Of a stretch of 64,000 bases of DNA, positions 42,001 to 48,000 are shown one piece after another. The position numbers were made by a program. The DNA is taken from the NCBI GenBank assembly GCA_963825055.1, contig CAWGSK010000030.1, positions 1 through 64,000 of the forward strand, in the 5' to 3' direction. Numbering within the stretch: position 1 is the first letter of the stretch; every line of letters begins with the position of its first letter. This DNA comes from an uncultured Gemmatimonadales bacterium (GTDB lineage: Bacteria > Gemmatimonadota > Gemmatimonadetes > Gemmatimonadales > GWC2-71-9).

Positions 42001-45000
42001 TCGGGGTTTTCCACTGGCCCACGTGGTGGGTCTCCGAGATGTGGACCGATTCGTCGCTGTACACGGTTCGATACCGTCACGTAGCCGGCATCACCGCGGG
42101 GATGGATGTCCGGTGGGAGATTGTGGAGGATGGCGGAGGTTCCGTCATCTCCATTGTTCACGAATGGACGGGCCCGCGGTGGCCGCTGGTGGGCGGCATG
42201 GCTGCCAGCCTGGTCATCGGACCGGTGTTCATCCATGGCATCGCGTCCCGAACCCTCGCCGGGATTCGCCGGCATGTCGAGCAGTCACATGAATGAACGT
42301 CGCGTTGTCATCACAGGGCTGGGCCTGATCACGCCGATCGGGACCGGTCCGGACGGTGTCTGGGCCGGCCTGCGCGCCCGGCAGAGCGCAGTCCGGGAGA
42401 TCACCCGCTTCGATCCGTCGCCGTTCCGCAGTCACATCGCGGCGGAGATACCCGAGTTCCATGCGGTGGACCACATGGATTCCCGGCGCGCGCGGCGACT
42501 CGACCGCTTCTCCCAGCTGAGCATCGCGTCCGCGCGCCTCGCCATCGAGGACGCCAGCCTCCGCATCGAGCGGGAGGACTCGGACCGGCTGGGCGCGATG
42601 ATGGGTACGGCGCTGGGGGGCGTGGCGCAGGCGGAGGCCCAGCACGCGCGCTACCTGGAAGGCGGAATCCGGAACGTGGACCCCGCACTCGCGCTGACGG
42701 TCTTCGCGGGGGCGGCAAGCTGCAATATGGCGATCGAATTCGGGCTGACCGGCCCCAACTCCACCAACGGCATGAGCTGCGCATCCGGGACCATTGCCAT
42801 CGGCGATGGTTTCCGGACGATTCGCCGCGGCGAGGCGGACGTGATGCTGGCCGGCGGCATCGAGGCTCCCCTGTCCCCGCTCAGTTTCGGGGCGTTCGCC
42901 ATCATCCGCGCCATGTCCACGCGGAATGAGGCCCCGGGGAGCGCCAGCCGTCCCTTCGATGCCGGACGCGACGGGTTTGTCATGGGCGAAGCCGCCGCCG
43001 TGCTCGTTCTGGAGGAGCGGAGCCGCGCGGTGGCCCGCGGGGCACGGATCTATGCCGAAGTCCTGGGGTACGGCCTCACCAACGATGCGCACCACATGAC
43101 CGCGCCGAGGCCGGACGGGGTCCAGGCCGCCCGGGCGATCCGCCTGGCCCTGGCGGATGCGCACGTGGTGGCCGGAGAGATCGGATATATCAACGCCCAC
43201 GGGTCCTCGACGCCGCTGAATGACCCGACCGAGACCGGGTCCATCCGTCAGGTCTTCGGGGAGCAGGCGGGGCGGATTCCAGTGAGCGGGACCAAGGGGT
43301 ACTATGGGCACGCGCTGGGCGCGAGCGGCGCCGTCGAGGCCGGCATCTGCGCGCTGGCCAGCACGAACGGGTGGCTTCCCCCCACCATCAACCTCACCAC
43401 GCCTGACCCGGCGTGCGACCTCGACTACCTGCCCGGCGAAGGCCGGAAGGCGAGCCCGGAGTTTCTCCTGAGCAATTCATTCGGGTTCGGGGGGATCAAC
43501 GCCGCGCTCGTCTTCCAGCGCGCGAGCTGACCGCCGCCTTGCTGGGGCCGGGCCCGGCCCCTAAATTGGCCGCCGTTGTGTGGTTCCCCTCCAACTCCAA
43601 CGCGGGATTGTCCTGATGCCGTCGTTACCTCGCCGGGCGGTCGCGGAGCTTGTCGGTACCTTCGGGCTGGTTTTCATCGGCGCCGGCTCGGTCATGATGA
43701 GCACGTACGCCGGAACGAACTACGGGCTCCTTGGGATCGCCCTGGCGCACGCGGTGGTCCTGTCGGTCATGGTGACCGCCACGATGAACATCTCCGGCGG
43801 GCACCTGAATCCCGCGGTCACGGTCGGCTTCATCGTGACGCGCCGTATCGACGCGATATCGGCCATCACCTACCTGCTGGCCCAGCTCGCCGGCGCCGTC
43901 CTCGCCGCCGCCCTGCTGCACTACTTCATCCCCGCCAACCTGTCGCGCGTGGGCGCGCTGGGCACCCCGCTCATCTCGGGGAACGTCACGCTCGGCATGG
44001 CGATCGGCCTCGAGGCGGTACTCACCTTCTTCCTGGTGTCGGCCGTGTTTGGCACCGTCGTCGCGGTTGACGCCCCGAAGGTCGGCGGTTTCGGTGTCGG
44101 CCTCGTGCTGCTGTTCGACATCCTGGTGGGCGGCCCGCTGACCGGCGCGGCCATGAACCCGGCACGCGCCTTCGGCCCGGCCCTGGTCAGCGGGACATGG
44201 ACCGGACACGTCGCCTACTGGGCGGGACCGCTCCTCGGCGGGATCGTCGCGGCGCTGTTGTGGGACCTGGTGCTGCTGAGGGAAACGCATGACCGGAAGG
44301 TGTGAAAGAAGTGAATAGTGAGTAGTGAGTAGTGCTTCAGTGCCGGGATCCCGCCTTAAAGCACTAATCACCACCCACTATTCACTATTCACTACGCACC
44401 GCTTTCTTCTCCTGCCGCCGCGTCCGCACCACCAGGCTCACCGTGTAGCTCAGGTAAACCACCGCCGTCACGATGTAGGCCGCCACCATGTAGCTGCCGT
44501 TGTCCGGAAGGCTATGCACCGGTCCCCTCCTCATCCAGTGTCTGCAGCAGCGCCAGCCCGTAGCGCCACGTCACGAATCCCAGGTACAGCAGCGTCGCCA
44601 CCCCGAAGGAGATGAGGAGCGTCCGCAGCATCACGGGCGGCAGGGAGGGTGCGCTCGGCTTGAGCACGATCGGCTGGGGATGGAGCGTGCGGAAGAGATA
44701 GACGCTCAAGTGGATGAAGGGCACCAGCACCAGGCCGAGGATTCCCACCACCGCGCTGAACCGGGCGCGCTCATCCGGGTCGGCGATCGCCGCCCGGAGC
44801 ACGCGGTAACCCACGAAGAGGAAAAACAGGAACAGCGTGAGGGTGAGGCGCGCGTCCCAGGTCCACCATGCGCCCCAGATTGGCTTTCCCCAGATGGGGC
44901 CGGTGGTGAGCATGATGGCGCTGAAGGCGAGCCCGACCTCGGCGGAGGAGGCGGCGAAGAGATCCAGCCGCCGGTCCCGCAGCCAGAGGTAGAGGATGCT

Positions 45001-48000
45001 CACGATACCGACCAGCGAGAACGCCAGCAGGGCGGACCAGGCGGCCGGAGCGTGGATGTAGAAGATCTTCTGGGCCAGGCCCTGCCGCGCCTCGATCGGC
45101 GTGTAGCGCAGGGCCAGGACGTAGACGACCGCCAGGCCCAGAAGGGCCAGGCCCGTGATCCACATGCCCCGGCGAATCGTCCGGCGGGCCTGCGCATCGC
45201 TCAGGATCATTCGTCCACCACGAAAGCGAAAAGGAGGGTCGAGAGTACCAGGAACACCACGTCGTATACGGCGAGTAACCTAAGCCAGCCCATCAACTCA
45301 CTCAACGGCCTCCCGCTCAGCAGCCGGGACGTTGCCTGGGCCGCCGCGAGCAGGGGCGGCACCATGAATGGCAGGAGCATCACCGGCAGCATGAGCTCGG
45401 CAAACCGGGTGCGAACCGCCATGGCGCTGAACATGGTGCCTGCGGCCACGAAACCGATTGTCGCCAGGGCGATCACGGCGCTGATTCCCGGTAGCGCGTG
45501 CCCCAGGTCGACATTGAAGAAGAGCACGAAAAGGGGGACGGTGATCAACTCGACGATACCGACGAAGACCAGGTTCGCCACGACTTTCCCGAGGTACAGT
45601 GCCTCCCGCGGCACCGGCGCGAGGCGCAGGCCGGAGAGCGCGTCGTGTTCGCGCTCCACATGGAATGACCGGTTGAGCGTGATCACCGCCGCGAAGGCTA
45701 TCGTCACCCACAGGACGCTCGGCGCCAGGTCCACCATCGCGGTGGCAGTGGGGTCGCGGGAGAAGTTGAACACGACCAGGACCAGTGCGGCGAACGTCAC
45801 GGAAGACAGCAGCGCGGTCCGGCTGCGGAACTCGAGCCGGAGATCCTTGGCGGCCACTACCAGGGCCAGACGGAGCGCGCGGATCATCCGGCAGCCTCCA
45901 GGCACCGCCGCTCGAATGCCTGCACGTCACCCTTCCTGGCCTCGGTAAACGCCCAGGACCCACCCGCCAGCAGGGCCACGTGCGTGGCCTCGGCCCAGAC
46001 CTCGGTCGGCTGGTGGGTCACCACCAGCGCGGAGCCGCCGGCATCGCGGTGCCGGGCCAGCTGTCGCCGCAGCGTGCCGGAGGAATGCGAATCGAGCCCC
46101 GTAAAGGGCTCGTCCAGGAGGAGCAGGAGCGGGGAATGCAGCAGCGCCCGGGCCACTGCCGCCCGCTGGCGCATCCCCCGGCTCAGGCTCCGGAGGAGGT
46201 CATCGGCCCGGGGGCCGAGGTCGGCCAGCTCGATACCCGCAGCAGCGATGGTGGAGGGCATCGCGAGATCGTGGCATCGCGCCGCGAACACCAGGTTCTC
46301 CCGGAGGGTCAGGTCGTCGTACAGCATGGTCTCATGCGCCACGTACCCGATACCGCGCCGGGTCTCCGGGTCGCGGCGGTCGAGCGCAATCCCGCCGATC
46401 CGCACCGTGCCGGACTGGGCCGCGAGCAGGCCGGCCAGGATCCGGAGCAGCGTGCTCTTCCCCGAACCGTTCCGCCCGGCCACCAGCCACAGCTCTCCCG
46501 CTCCGACGGTGAGGTCCAGGTCGCGGAAGACCGTGACCCGCCCGAATCTCCGGGTCAGCCCGCGGGCTTCGACGGTCGGTGCCTCAGGCGGCATCGATGG
46601 TCTGGGCGAGCGTGTCGAGATCGAAAGGCTTGACGAGATAACCGGAATATGCGAGGTCGAGCATGCGGAGTTGTGGCTCGCTGCTGACGTAGGCGGTGGT
46701 GATGATCACGGGAAGGTCCGGGCGGATTTCACGGATCCGCCGGAGGAGGTCCACTCCGTCGGTGTCGGGCAGCCTCATGTCGAGCACGACGACTTCGGGC
46801 TCGTGCACGCGCAGACGGCCCATTGCCTCGCTGCCACTGGCGGCGAACGCCATGTCGTAGCGGGGGTGAAAGTAACGCTGGTAACTGGTCCGGAGCGCCG
46901 GCTCATCCTCGATGAAGAGGACCCGGCGTCGCGGCGGGCTTGGATCCATCCCTGCTCACCTATCGCAGCGAGGCGTTGGCCAACGGTGCAATATAGCGGA
47001 GGATGGGACTCGCGCACGGCGGGCCGGGAGACGGGCAGCAGGCCCCGGACGGAGGAGGCCTCCCTCCGGTCGCCTGCGACCCGCCTGCGGGTTACCCGTG
47101 GTGGGTCTCAAGCAGGAAAAGGTCGTCCAGTTTCGTGAGCATGAGCAGGTAACGCAGCTCATCACTGGTGTTGCGCAGGACCACGTCGCGCTGCCGTTCG
47201 GCGGCCTTGCGCTGGATCAGCATCAGCGCGCCGAGTCCGGCGGAGTCCACCCGCGTTGTGGCCTTCAGGTCGATGATCAGCTGCCCATCGCCTTGTGGCA
47301 GGTCGTCCAGCAGGCGGAAGGCTTCCTGACGGAAGTTATTACGCGAATCCAGCCCCAGGTGTTCGGGTGCGGACAGCATGGCTTTCTTCGGGTTCGGCGA
47401 CATGTTTCCTCCGCCACCCGGAAACGAGCAAAGCGTGGGGGGTCCACGCCGCTCCTATGGCTGAACGCACCACGCTTTCGCGTTGCATTCCACCTTCGGC
47501 ACCGAGCTATCTCCCATCGGGAGACCTCTGGTTTTGCGGCCCCGGATCGCTCCGGGTGTGCTCTTATCGGGCGGATCAATTGTCTGCGAGCCTTTCGGGC
47601 CCGCGGTCACTGTAGATGGCGAGACGGGTGCCAGAACCCAGACCGAGTTGTGCCCCAACGACTTAGGAGCGCCGTGCAATAGCGTGCGCAGGCCTTTTCC
47701 CTAGCACTCCGCCTGTGGCGTGGGAGAACTGCAACGCGAAAATCAGCACTCCCGAACGGGCCGTTCCCGTTTACATATGTATGGTACCGTGTCGCAGGAC
47801 ATCACTGGCCGTCCCCCAACCAGACGGAACACCATGAGCGACCAACTCGACACCCTTCTTTCCGAGCAGCGCAGCTTCCCGCCCGACCAGGCCTTCCAGG
47901 ACCAGGCCAATGCACAGCCGGAGATCTACGATCGCGCCGCAAGGGACCGGGAAGCCTTCTGGGCCGAGGAGGCCAGGGCCCTGGACTGGATCACCCCCTG

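Follow-up and report, generated by a model that had tools for sequence, protein, structure and literature searches.

Vc2 of Vibrio cholerae (Rfam RF01051), a c-di-GMP riboswitch of the GEMM-I class, uses a conserved G (G20) for the G-alpha contact. Among STAS-domain proteins, SpoIIAA and RsbV are anti-sigma-factor antagonists, and MlaB is the partner of the ABC ATPase MlaF. The 3'3'-cGAMP (GEMM-Ib) switches of Geobacter (Gs1761, Gm0970/pilM and pgcA) have A at the G20-equivalent position and keep the C92 equivalent, coexist with G20 aptamers in one genome and share a c-type cytochrome theme, as described in parts of PMC6456294 and PMC6140456; they are transcriptional ON switches. In the c-di-GMP OFF switch Cd1 of Clostridioides difficile, long-range pairing between aptamer and downstream sequence destroys the binding pocket, the 3' aptamer strand and a terminator strand forming the antiterminator (parts of PMC9262584).

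We analyzed a window of 64,000 nucleotides (contig CAWGSK010000030.1, positions 1 to 64,000) from an uncultured Gemmatimonadales bacterium. Directly observed are an aptamer, an A at its G20 position, a promoter motif, the gene content given below and the conservation of all of these. Like Vc2, the window aptamer folds into P1, P2 and a P1b capped by a GNRA-type loop (GCGA), keeps the junctions CGCAAA and UGCC and scores above the family cut-off; it differs in the A at the G20 contact, in a short P2 without the model's internal part and in a promoter of the sigma-54 type. It resembles the Geobacter switches in the A at position 20, the retained C92 equivalent, the coexistence with G20 aptamers and the cytochrome theme, and one further A20 aptamer of this genome precedes pilin-like genes; the differences are the phylum, the target (a STAS gene next to those for heme export, not the cytochromes themselves), the rarity of Hypr GGDEF enzymes in relatives with none found here, and 13 orthologous leaders that are predicted to be translational OFF switches. 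As in Cd1, long-range pairing would destroy the binding pocket, except that here the 5' aptamer strand pairs and its predicted partner lies at and beyond a U-rich tail, too late for termination. Taken as a whole, the locus is best explained, with fair probability, as a working GEMM-I switch on a sigma-54-dependent transcript that gates STAS directly and the ccm genes at most indirectly.

The aptamer and its conservation

The genome-wide survey's note had reported a GEMM-I aptamer with A20 and with A47 and C92 kept, and both points stand. The RF01051 (c-di-GMP-I) match at 47495-47572 on the minus strand scores 52.1 bits, well over the gathering score of 35, and judging from this match we regard the RNA as a genuine member of the GEMM-I cyclic-dinucleotide class, an already known riboswitch class. 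The elements concerned are the following.

47490..47574, minus strand: GEMM-I aptamer including P1
47568-47574 and 47490-47498, minus strand: P1 5' strand (CCGCCCG) and 3' strand (CGAAGGUGG)
47562, minus strand: A equivalent to the ligand-contacting G20 of Vc2, immediately 5' of P1b

Where the window aptamer has A (47562), the conserved base of the RF01051 consensus is G; the UAU model shows U in this column, the GGC model G. The remaining two letters of the model names map to the CGC-A-AA and UG-C-C columns, and therefore the window aptamer is read as A20/A47/C92, both of the latter ligand contacts being retained. We presume the Vc2 numbering in part; otherwise it follows the model names and part of the text (the Introduction) of PMC6140456. 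The UAU variant RF03168 itself gave 56.8 bits on this aptamer, under its cut-off of 65.9.

Conservation of the aptamer, A20 and gene order across genera, also claimed before, was borne out. An aptamer occupies the equivalent place, 2.0-2.35 kb upstream of ccmC, in 25 of 80 Gemmatimonadales ccmC loci, with A20 in all 24 that could be called, and 28 of the 151 genomes sampled from the order (15 of 64 genera) carry the signature GATAAKAGCACACCCGG. The core is almost invariant over the 25 loci, while the distal P2 ranges from 3 to ~70 nt with compensating changes. One P1 position covaries across loci (G.U, G-C, U-A or a G/A mismatch), and in a 31-row alignment, which was fitted to the model, paired cells make up 97.9% and double changes appear in 15 of the 19 pairs.

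It is highly improbable that the aptamer is a decaying relic without regulatory role and that STAS is governed by the sigma-54 promoter only. Such a reading draws on 20 loci that have STAS-REC-ccmA and the sigma-54 motif but no aptamer, so that the operon works without one; it is contradicted by the near-invariant core, the compensated P2, the score well above cut-off, the retained A47 and C92, and the paralogous aptamer copy that each of five relatives keeps before other genes.

The leader and its possible switching

Between promoter and STAS start codon, the leader contains these elements.

47619..47633, minus strand: sigma-54-type promoter, TGGCAC-N5-TCGC (-24/-12 elements), by pattern match
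47586..47604, minus strand: small 5' leader hairpin, GCGGGCC-CGAAA-GGCUCGC, by folding, between promoter and aptamer
47463..47490, minus strand: hairpin H1, GAAUGCAACGC-GAAA-GCGUGGUGCGUUC, by folding, immediately 3' of P1
47415..47454, minus strand: GC-rich stem-loop (47426-47454) whose U-rich tail is interrupted, by folding
47414..47431, minus strand: anti-aptamer segment UGCUCGUUUCCGGGUGG, complementary to the P1 5' strand and A-rich junction as well as to the start of P1b, and abutting the Shine-Dalgarno sequence
47403..47412 as listed, minus strand: Shine-Dalgarno GGAGG (47408-47412) and STAS start codon (47401-47403), by sequence

Of the 54 STAS-first loci, 43 have the sigma-54 motif 5' of STAS, as do none of the 22 others (0/2 REC-first, 0/20 ccmA-first), against a background of 60 pattern matches per 1.65 Mb; the genome encodes rpoN. 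Relatives have hairpins of other sequence at the spot of the small 5' hairpin, for which we can only infer a role. On inspection of the fold output, the H1 equivalent in one relative (L026) has a 3' arm that also serves the following stem-loop as 5' arm.

The aptamer had been described as followed by a terminator-like hairpin, a description that now looks doubtful. With the UUUGCUCGUUU that comes after it, the stem-loop at 47426-47454 makes a weak candidate for an intrinsic terminator: a simple consensus terminator scan did not call it in the window, and a stem-loop of this type is missing in 13 of 25 orthologous leaders. Clean U tracts occur in the relatives L018, L026 and L032. In silico the window stem-loop folds whether P1 is enforced or not, a point against the mechanism proposed next.

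Our proposed mechanism starts from a sigma-54-dependent transcript with the GEMM-I switch in its 5' leader and a small STAS-domain protein as its first gene. The P1 5' strand and A-rich junction would pair with the P1 3' strand in the ligand-competent aptamer, or alternatively with a conserved segment farther downstream, which is made up of the U-rich tail and CCGGGUGG and adjoins the ribosome-binding site of STAS. By fixing the aptamer fold, the ligand would set STAS translation, and perhaps read-through. The alternative duplex in the window is predicted at -18.7 kcal/mol and forms part of the lowest-energy structure computed for the whole leader. A UCGGGYG-type segment is found at the equivalent place in most window-type leaders and three paralogues, and for 12 of 14 leaders the anti-aptamer duplex lies between -14 and -22 kcal/mol. 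Compared with control windows, the duplex energy falls within the top 7% in nine of the 14, and the complementarity is no better than background in the other five. Predicted accessibility of the Shine-Dalgarno sequence did not differ consistently between the P1 and anti-aptamer folds in ten leaders.

Orthologous leaders come in two architectures. In 13 loci 7-10 nt separate the aptamer from the start of STAS, with GAAGGAGGA lying within P1; here the STAS Shine-Dalgarno sequence is the P1 3' strand itself, so ligand should switch STAS off, a translational OFF design as far as the layout tells. In 12 loci the gap is 53-97 nt (87 nt in the window), and for this type, with its hairpin and anti-aptamer segment, OFF and ON are about equally probable. 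The two architectures could mean opposite regulatory signs in sister lineages, which weighs against the proposed mechanism.

Genes and the reach of the switch

The genes, and the elements at the STAS-REC boundary, are as follows.

47092..47403, minus strand: STAS-domain protein, 103 aa (PF13466 E 3.8e-10, PF01740 E 6.4e-9)
47010..47090, minus strand: long GC-rich hairpin 3' of the STAS stop codon (fold -63.3 kcal/mol over 110 nt)
46990..46995, minus strand: -10-like TATATT, a conserved hexamer and candidate internal promoter for REC-ccmABCD
46584..46949, minus strand: stand-alone receiver (REC), 121 aa (PF00072 E 3.4e-24)
45884..46594, minus strand: CcmA, heme-exporter ATPase (TIGR01189 145.7 bits, cut-off 131.6)
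45207..45905, minus strand: CcmB (PF03379 E 6.1e-36)
44512..45210, minus strand: CcmC (PF01578 E 3.2e-25; best match TIGR01191 145.1 bits, under its cut-off of 186)
44385..44534, minus strand: CcmD-like small membrane ORF (PF04995 E 0.055, 14 bits, under its cut-off of 25.6)

This gene content agrees with the survey's note, the CcmD assignment resting on a match below cut-off. The CcmD-like ORF encodes 49 aa from ATG or 44 aa from an internal GTG, and tblastn placed a relative of it after ccmC in most of 80 loci. The end of the REC gene and the start of ccmA overlap by 11 nt. PF01578 has two matches in the genome, CcmC at 44512..45210 as the sole one of CcmC type and CcmF on contig C12; CcmE, too, is encoded elsewhere, and genome searches did not find ResB. 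Provisionally, because the genome is 87% complete, it has no other heme-export module of System I cytochrome c maturation than ccmABCD.

By Pfam the window protein shares the STAS fold of SpoIIAA, RsbV and MlaB; among 49 orthologues D53 is invariant and S54, the DSxGLG serine, is conserved in at least 90%. In contrast to these proteins, all its NCBIfam scores are far under cut-off, the best matches being MlaB (top, E 3.4e-7) and anti-sigma-factor antagonist. The operon contains no gene for an anti-sigma kinase or PP2C phosphatase. Like mlaB, the STAS gene stands beside an ABC ATPase gene.

The aptamer had been taken simply to head a six-gene operon, which does not fit the hairpin and the TATATT box between STAS and REC, nor the sigma-54 promoter upstream. 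The exact hexamer occurs in 24 of 45 REC loci and most others have related hexamers; in about 20 relatives the REC ATG follows it after 6-10 nt without a Shine-Dalgarno sequence, a leaderless-promoter layout, and we infer a promoter function for it from this pattern. The STAS-REC gap is mostly 97-199 nt in riboswitch-bearing loci versus 27-83 nt in riboswitch-less ones; at four exceptions (L046, L048, L051 and L068), riboswitch-bearing with gaps of just 42-49 nt, read-through into ccm is likely. Hairpin and conserved box together argue for direct control of STAS by the switch and, for heme export, for indirect control at most. Heme export probably has its own promoter, with riboswitch influence only by read-through or STAS action. 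Of the proposal that cytochrome c maturation is under cyclic-dinucleotide control, the part that survives is a direct STAS target; for ccmABCD control would be at best by read-through or via STAS.

Candidate ligands

The same proposal had treated A20 as a signature of cGAMP sensing. This equation is weakened by parts of PMC6140456, which describe natural A20 aptamers as able to bind both c-di-GMP and cGAMP, the former through an N1-protonated adenine, and, with parts of PMC9262584, present position 20 as tuning selectivity rather than as a hard filter. For the window aptamer, c-di-GMP tolerated by A20 has about an even chance of being the ligand, 3'3'-cGAMP or dual recognition is quite possible, and something else is improbable.

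The distribution of A20 suggests a second specificity. Among 80 top-scoring aptamers it occurs in 12 of 38 callable ones from the window's family versus none of 39 from the sister family, where G20 is invariant; within the window's family, A is fixed in several aptamer subfamilies that are independent of one another, which looks like selection for A and not drift. Both classes are kept together in the same genomes (two A and one G here; five relatives together have 13 A, 10 G, 1 U and 1 C). These patterns speak against an ordinary c-di-GMP switch with one signal per cell, in which A20 would be a lineage-specific neutral or affinity-tuning variant with a protonated adenine. That reading is nevertheless a serious one, falling just short of an even chance, since all 11 intact GGDEF domains of this genome have Asp, as do those checked in the A20-bearing relatives G142 (11 of 11 domains) and G096 (5 of 11 checked), A20 aptamers do bind c-di-GMP, and the same general kinds of genes follow A20 and G20 aptamers.

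We consider it unlikely that a cGAMP-selective GEMM-Ib switch with a ligand-controlled terminator governs the whole STAS-REC-ccmABCD operon, placing cytochrome c maturation under 3'3'-cGAMP as exoelectrogenesis genes are in Geobacter. Besides A20 with A47 and C92, its constancy among orthologues and its family-restricted coexistence with G20, this explanation can point to Hypr-signature GGDEFs (Ser plus GGDEF) in three aptamer-carrying relatives (G151, G154 and G119), to the Geobacter switches upstream of cytochrome and pilus genes (parts of PMC6456294) and to the second A20 aptamer of this genome. It is opposed by the Asp-only A20 genomes, by possible bispecificity, by a hairpin that fails the terminator scan, forms regardless of P1 and is absent from 13 of the 25 orthologous leaders, and by the elements between STAS and REC. 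As the survey's note had found, Ser at the GGDEF specificity site (Hypr type) occurs in none of the 12 domains of this genome, a provisional result at 87% completeness. The three relatives were the only ones examined with Ser, and a Ser-type orthologue at E<=1e-30 was present in one of 151 sampled genomes, versus the aptamer signature in 28 of the same sample.

A search for CD-NTases gave one weak SMODS match (C5:623-796, 22.3 bits against a cut-off of 26.5). As a speculative candidate synthase we name a family-restricted Fe-S GGDEF protein with Asn at the specificity site. The second A20 aptamer of the genome sits before pseudopilin genes, and the genes behind A20 and G20 aptamers alike encode secreted proteins, lipoproteins and pilins.

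The aptamer and its position 20

The riboswitch ahead of the STAS gene is real and conserved; its class is known, while the lineage and the gene context are new. By cmscan of the window, the stretch 47495-47572 (minus strand) matches the c-di-GMP-I model RF01051 with 52.1 bits against a gathering score of 35, which makes it a member of that family by covariance-model score. We did not assign it to the c-di-GMP-I-UAU variant (RF03168): at looser thresholds it scored 56.8 bits, below the cut-off of 65.9, and it has A20 and C92, whereas that class needs U20/U92. The base just 5' of the first paired GC of helix P1b is an A where RF01051 has a conserved, upper-case G. 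In the same column the UAU model has U and the GGC model G, and the two remaining letters of these names correspond to the leading A of CGC-AAA and to the C that follows UG close to the 3' end. We take this column to be position 20 of the Vc2 aptamer, relying on the model names and in part on the Vc2 sequence. Read in this numbering, the window aptamer is A20/A47/C92, with A20 at 47562; the aptamer, these three bases and the gene content had been described correctly in the genome-wide survey's note. The GEMM-I contact set G20/A47/C92 is thus present at its last two positions, while the GEMM-Ib combination (A20 with C92 kept) is found in the window and in all 24 callable orthologues. In Vc2, G20 reads one guanine of c-di-GMP and C92 pairs with the other, and the cGAMP class is described as having A at position 20 (PMC6140456).

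The same genome encodes three GEMM-I aptamers, namely the one in the window (A20) and two others:
Contig 24, 12088-12162 (locus L004, 8089-8163), minus strand: second A20 aptamer, 53.5 bits
Contig 17, 28279-28355 (locus L005, 8280-8356), minus strand: G20 aptamer, 52.9 bits
The former lies upstream of three genes with an N-terminal methylation (pilin or pseudopilin) motif and the latter upstream of ORFs without a Pfam family.

Relatives of CcmC were sought in one genome per species, which gave 80 loci, all labelled Gemmatimonadales or Gemmatimonadota bar one labelled Acidimicrobiia. STAS-REC-ccmA (REC, receiver) or STAS-ccmA precedes ccmBC in 54 of them. A covariance model built from the genome's own three aptamers gave a strong match (55-79 bits) at 25 of these 80 loci, always on the same strand as ccmC. 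These aptamers lie upstream of ccmC, at a distance of 2.15-2.35 kb in 23 loci and of about 2.0 kb in the two that have no receiver gene. All 24 aptamers with an intact 5' end have A before P1b; the earlier claim that the aptamer and its A20 are conserved beside ccm genes is therefore borne out. The distal part of P2 varies from 3 to ~70 nt among orthologues with its base pairs kept. In a 31-row alignment, fitted to the model and including six weak non-orthologous rows, 97.9% of cells in P1b and P2 are paired and 15 of the 19 pairs show double changes, against at most 47% paired in slid controls, so that these RF01051 helices are supported by compensating changes. The 17-base signature GATAAKAGCACACCCGG, with at most one mismatch, occurs in 28 of 151 sampled genomes of the order (27 of 150 without the unpublished genome G077) and in 15 of 64 genera; by family, the counts are 25 of 61 genomes (the window's own family), 2 of 62 (a second) and 0 of 27 (a third).

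Each of five relatives that carry the ccm aptamer also has a near-identical paralogue of this A20 aptamer (L100, L098, L092, L103, L091). Three of the paralogues, followed by the same hairpin and UCGGGCG platform, precede a secreted protein of ~140-160 aa with an HEMLH motif, and two precede a lipoprotein of ~240 aa with a lysine- and glutamate-rich stretch.

The heme-export cluster and its putative promoters

The genes behind the aptamer are as follows:
47092-47403, minus strand: STAS protein, 103 aa (PF13466, PF01740)
46584-46949, minus strand: receiver, 121 aa (PF00072)
45884-46594, minus strand: CcmA (TIGR01189, 145.7 against 131.6)
45207-45905, minus strand: CcmB (PF03379)
44512-45210, minus strand: CcmC (PF01578)
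44385-44534, minus strand: CcmD-like ORF, 49 aa (PF04995, E 0.055, 14 bits against a cut-off of 25.6)
CcmA scores above its equivalog cut-off, and CcmB and CcmC above their Pfam cut-offs; the last ORF fits CcmD in size, position and its single hydrophobic stretch, with a sub-threshold family match. In the assembly (35 contigs, completeness 87%, contamination 6%), PF01578 was found in two genes only, the window's CcmC and a CcmF on contig 12, where CcmE and CcmF adjoin (39761-40993). The System II protein ResB was not found in this 87%-complete genome, so that the System I pattern for heme export, a CcmABC cluster together with CcmE and CcmF and without ResB, is present. Since only a single CcmC-type PF01578 gene was found, the window cluster is the only heme-export module detected. 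It is flanked by a divergent acetyl-CoA synthetase gene upstream and a convergent aquaporin gene downstream.

Between the ccmD-like ORF and the aquaporin gene lies a 75-nt near-perfect palindrome (44311-44385) with arms made of the 7-nt repeats TAGTGAG/TAGTGAA. Partial copies of its arm recur at no fewer than 40 sites, spread over at least 20 of the genome's contigs, so that it looks like a REP-like dispersed element; matches to miRNA families at the same position are false positives caused by the palindromic repeat. Three relatives (L042, L072, L074) have other heptamer-repeat palindromes in a similar intergenic spot.

The STAS protein belongs to its family by both models (PF13466, 40.2 against 29.2; PF01740, 36 against 22.6). 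A DSxGLG loop with a conserved serine is the motif of STAS domains and anti-sigma-factor antagonists, and the protein keeps the loop as VDSAGLG, with D53 invariant and S54 kept in at least 90% of 49 orthologues. Within the operon, no gene for an anti-sigma kinase or PP2C phosphatase was found. Prediction of a CcmA-STAS complex scored 0.02 (alignments of 49 rows each), which speaks neither for nor against an MlaB-like role. Beside the heme exporter, the protein may be an MlaB-like companion of the ATPase or may act by partner-switching. By eye, the receiver keeps the acidic pocket, Asp, Thr and Lys of REC motifs.

A sigma-54 promoter motif, TGGCACCCGTCTCGC, lies at 47619-47633 (minus strand), with GG at -24 and GC at -12 at the fixed spacing of a TGGCAC-N5-TTGC-like sequence. 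We first noticed TGGCAC-N5-TCGC/TTGC upstream of STAS in loci without the aptamer; it also stands ahead of the aptamer in riboswitch loci. Within 450 nt upstream of the first gene, the strict pattern was found in 43 of the 54 loci that begin with STAS, in neither of the two that begin with REC and in none of the 20 that begin with ccmA (some of the latter being cut short upstream), against a background of 60 matches in 1.65 Mb. The genome encodes an rpoN DNA-binding domain (contig 12, 464935-465411, E 3.5e-64). As the window motif is upstream of the aptamer, the aptamer lies between the sigma-54 promoter and STAS, and if the switch works as proposed, two layers of control, promoter and riboswitch, are stacked here. 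A second match to the pattern at 44050-44064 (plus strand), inside the aquaporin gene, was taken as chance, 0.48 being expected per window. Inspection by eye showed palindromes ~60-90 nt upstream of the -24 element (in L043, L044, L047, L049, L054, L062 and other loci): loci without the riboswitch have a conserved GTGAGC-N3-GCTCAC, and several with it have TTCGCAA-N4-TTGCGAA. They are candidate sites for a sigma-54 activator, and no clear counterpart was seen in the window.

In the 142-nt gap between STAS and the receiver gene, 110 nt are predicted to fold, at -63.3 kcal/mol, into a long and GC-rich hairpin; TATATT comes next, at 46990-46995. Exactly this hexamer precedes REC in 24 of 45 REC-bearing loci, and another 15 have a related one (TAGAGT, TATCTT, TATACT, TAGATT or TATGGT). 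Some 20 loci, almost all of them riboswitch-less, have the hexamer 6-10 nt before the REC ATG and no Shine-Dalgarno sequence, a spacing that, judged from sequence, is that of promoters of leaderless mRNAs. Among L043-L067, REC is apparently leaderless in many loci and STAS has a strong GGAGG. The gap measures mostly 97-199 nt, with hairpins, in riboswitch loci (42-49 nt in four) and 27-83 nt in riboswitch-less ones. From this conserved arrangement of hexamer and gap, we infer a separate promoter for REC-ccmABCD and a riboswitch that would act first on STAS. If the switch does work as proposed, cyclic-dinucleotide signals would, in a little-studied soil phylum, reach a regulator whose gene lies with those of the heme exporter, which every c-type cytochrome needs.

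Two leader architectures

The 25 orthologous leaders fall into two types. In type 1 (13 loci), the STAS start codon follows 7-10 nt past the aptamer and the 3' strand of helix P1 reads GAAGGAGGA, so that the Shine-Dalgarno sequence is itself part of P1; one such leader, L025, has a U-A pair in place of the G/A mismatch opposite the Shine-Dalgarno strand. By standard riboswitch logic, type 1 should be an OFF switch, in which the ligand hides the ribosome-binding site. Type 2 comprises 12 loci and, in addition, the window's own leader; here 53-97 nt separate the aptamer from STAS. The window's leader contains:
47463-47490, minus strand: first hairpin
47426-47454, minus strand: second, GC-rich stem-loop with the tail UUUGCUCGUUU
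47414-47421, minus strand: segment CCGGGUGG, then GGAGG and ATG

The survey had described a terminator-like hairpin behind the aptamer, yet a terminator scan of 44200-47900 does not call the stem-loop at 47426-47454, with its tail UUUGCUCGUUU, as Rho-independent. Proper U tracts do stand behind the equivalent stem-loop in L018, L026 and L032. When ten leaders were cut at the U tail and folded with and without enforced P1, the stem-loop formed in both states; because it folds regardless of P1, no ligand-dependent antiterminator was found in them, and we dropped a simple ligand-controlled terminator as the model for the window.

Type 2 leaders keep a different complementarity. One side is the 5' part of the aptamer (5' strand of P1, A-rich junction including A20, first part of P1b); the other is the U-rich tail and a UCGGGYG-type segment that adjoins the Shine-Dalgarno sequence. 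Of 14 leaders (three paralogues counted), 12 have predicted anti-aptamer duplexes of -14 to -22 kcal/mol; set against control windows taken from the same loci, nine of the 14 come within the top 7% and five do no better than background. The pairing is present in the predicted minimum-energy fold of the full window leader. As the anti-aptamer fold excludes the binding pocket, the ligand should choose between the two folds. Folding does not set the sign of the switch, since across ten leaders Shine-Dalgarno accessibility showed no consistent difference between enforced P1 and the enforced anti-aptamer fold; on these models, ON and OFF are about equally plausible for the window type. With two architectures serving one aptamer and one gene, the locus amounts to a natural experiment in expression-platform evolution.

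The AUG of a 49-codon ORF (47339-47488, minus strand) comes immediately behind the 3' strand of P1, and the ORF runs across the STAS start in another frame. By eye, L018, L021, L026 and L032 have an AUG at the same spot, and the length and frame of the ORF vary. As neither is kept, we rejected a leader peptide; the ORF is probably a relic of the architecture with the Shine-Dalgarno sequence in P1.

Candidate ligands and synthases

The survey's note had seen the hallmark of cGAMP sensing in A20 and read cytochrome c maturation as seemingly under cyclic-dinucleotide control. Control by cGAMP is not established by our results. The residue that sets specificity is Asp344 in PleD and Ser348 in the Hypr enzyme GacA (PMC6456294). 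Of the 12 GGDEF domains in the window's own, 87%-complete genome, 11 have Asp at this site and the remaining one, which is degenerate, has Arg; none of the 12 has Ser, in agreement with the survey, which had likewise seen no Hypr GGDEF there. The CD-NTase search of this genome gave one sub-threshold SMODS match at a contig end. Among the five relatives, where 40 of 48 GGDEF matches were checked, Ser together with GGDEF occurs in G151 and G154, and a search for orthologues of this Ser type in 151 genomes (E≤1e-30) recovered Ser only in G119, in one of 26 matches; as a general partner of A20 aptamers, the Ser-type GGDEF was therefore rejected. The Hypr-signature proteins are L145 (G151), L141 with the fragment L153 (G154) and L154 (G119). 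Two genomes with an A20 ccm-type aptamer appear to be of Asp type throughout: G142 has Asp in 11 of 11 GGDEF domains, and G096 in the five of 11 domains checked, the others being equal-scoring counterparts.

Position 20 itself is not uniform. The unique aptamers of the five relatives have 13 A, 10 G, 1 U and 1 C. For a wider view, 80 aptamers were fetched from the best 150 of ~290 GEMM-I matches in the order, a top-scoring sample that is biased toward G20 and in which each family is a single lineage; of those callable, the second family has G20 in 39 of 39, and the window's family has 26 G and 12 A among 38. A20 aptamers are described as binding c-di-GMP via a protonated adenine, with some natural ones bispecific (PMC6140456), and position 20 as contributing to selectivity without being a strict filter (PMC9262584). 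Because of the A20/G20 split, the rarity of Ser-type GGDEFs, the A20 genomes with Asp only and the known bispecific A20 aptamers, we give c-di-GMP an even chance of being the ligand, and regard cGAMP or dual recognition as a serious, if tentative, candidate.

Searches of the literature other than subscription journals and supplements of preprints returned, on GEMM-I, cGAMP and cytochromes, Geobacter work only, and no paper on a GEMM riboswitch ahead of ccm genes or on Hypr GGDEFs in Gemmatimonadota.

All five relatives share a GGDEF protein of ~580 aa with Asn at the specificity position:
L180, 235-1980, plus strand: Asn-type GGDEF (orthologues L181-L209, L134-L137, L139)
In the window's family, 55 of 61 genomes have it (the unpublished G077 included), and in the other two families none of 89 does; it was not found in the window's own, incomplete assembly. 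Asn goes with GGDEF, never GGEEF, in 30 of 30 orthologue loci examined (35 of 35 with the five relatives). Towards its N terminus the protein has matches to Fer4, Fe_hyd_lg_C and FeS, with 2x[4Fe-4S], hydrogenase-like and Fe-S sensor domains. The relevant passage of PMC6456294 mentions Ser/Thr, not Asn, as variants at this site. One might imagine that the window's family runs a second, undescribed cyclic-dinucleotide pathway, in which A20 aptamers would read an adenine-containing dinucleotide made by this enzyme and redox state would be passed on through this signal to pili, secreted proteins and the STAS gene next to the heme-export genes; we consider this improbable. Within the family, the protein occurs in 22 of 25 genomes with the ccm-type signature and in 33 of 36 without it, and it is absent from the aptamer-bearing G096 and G142. 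There is thus no association that would make it a specific partner of the ccm-type aptamer, the coincidence being at family level only.

A20 and G20 aptamers coexist in one family, not in its sister family, alongside rare Ser-type and ubiquitous Asn-type GGDEFs, and this contrast makes the group a concrete case for asking how widely signalling of the cGAMP kind extends outside Geobacter and related bacteria. On contig 5 of G151 (~1049100-1051700; L105, L110, L111), four G20 GEMM-I aptamers lie on one strand within ~2.6 kb, forming a tandem array ahead of small secreted proteins.
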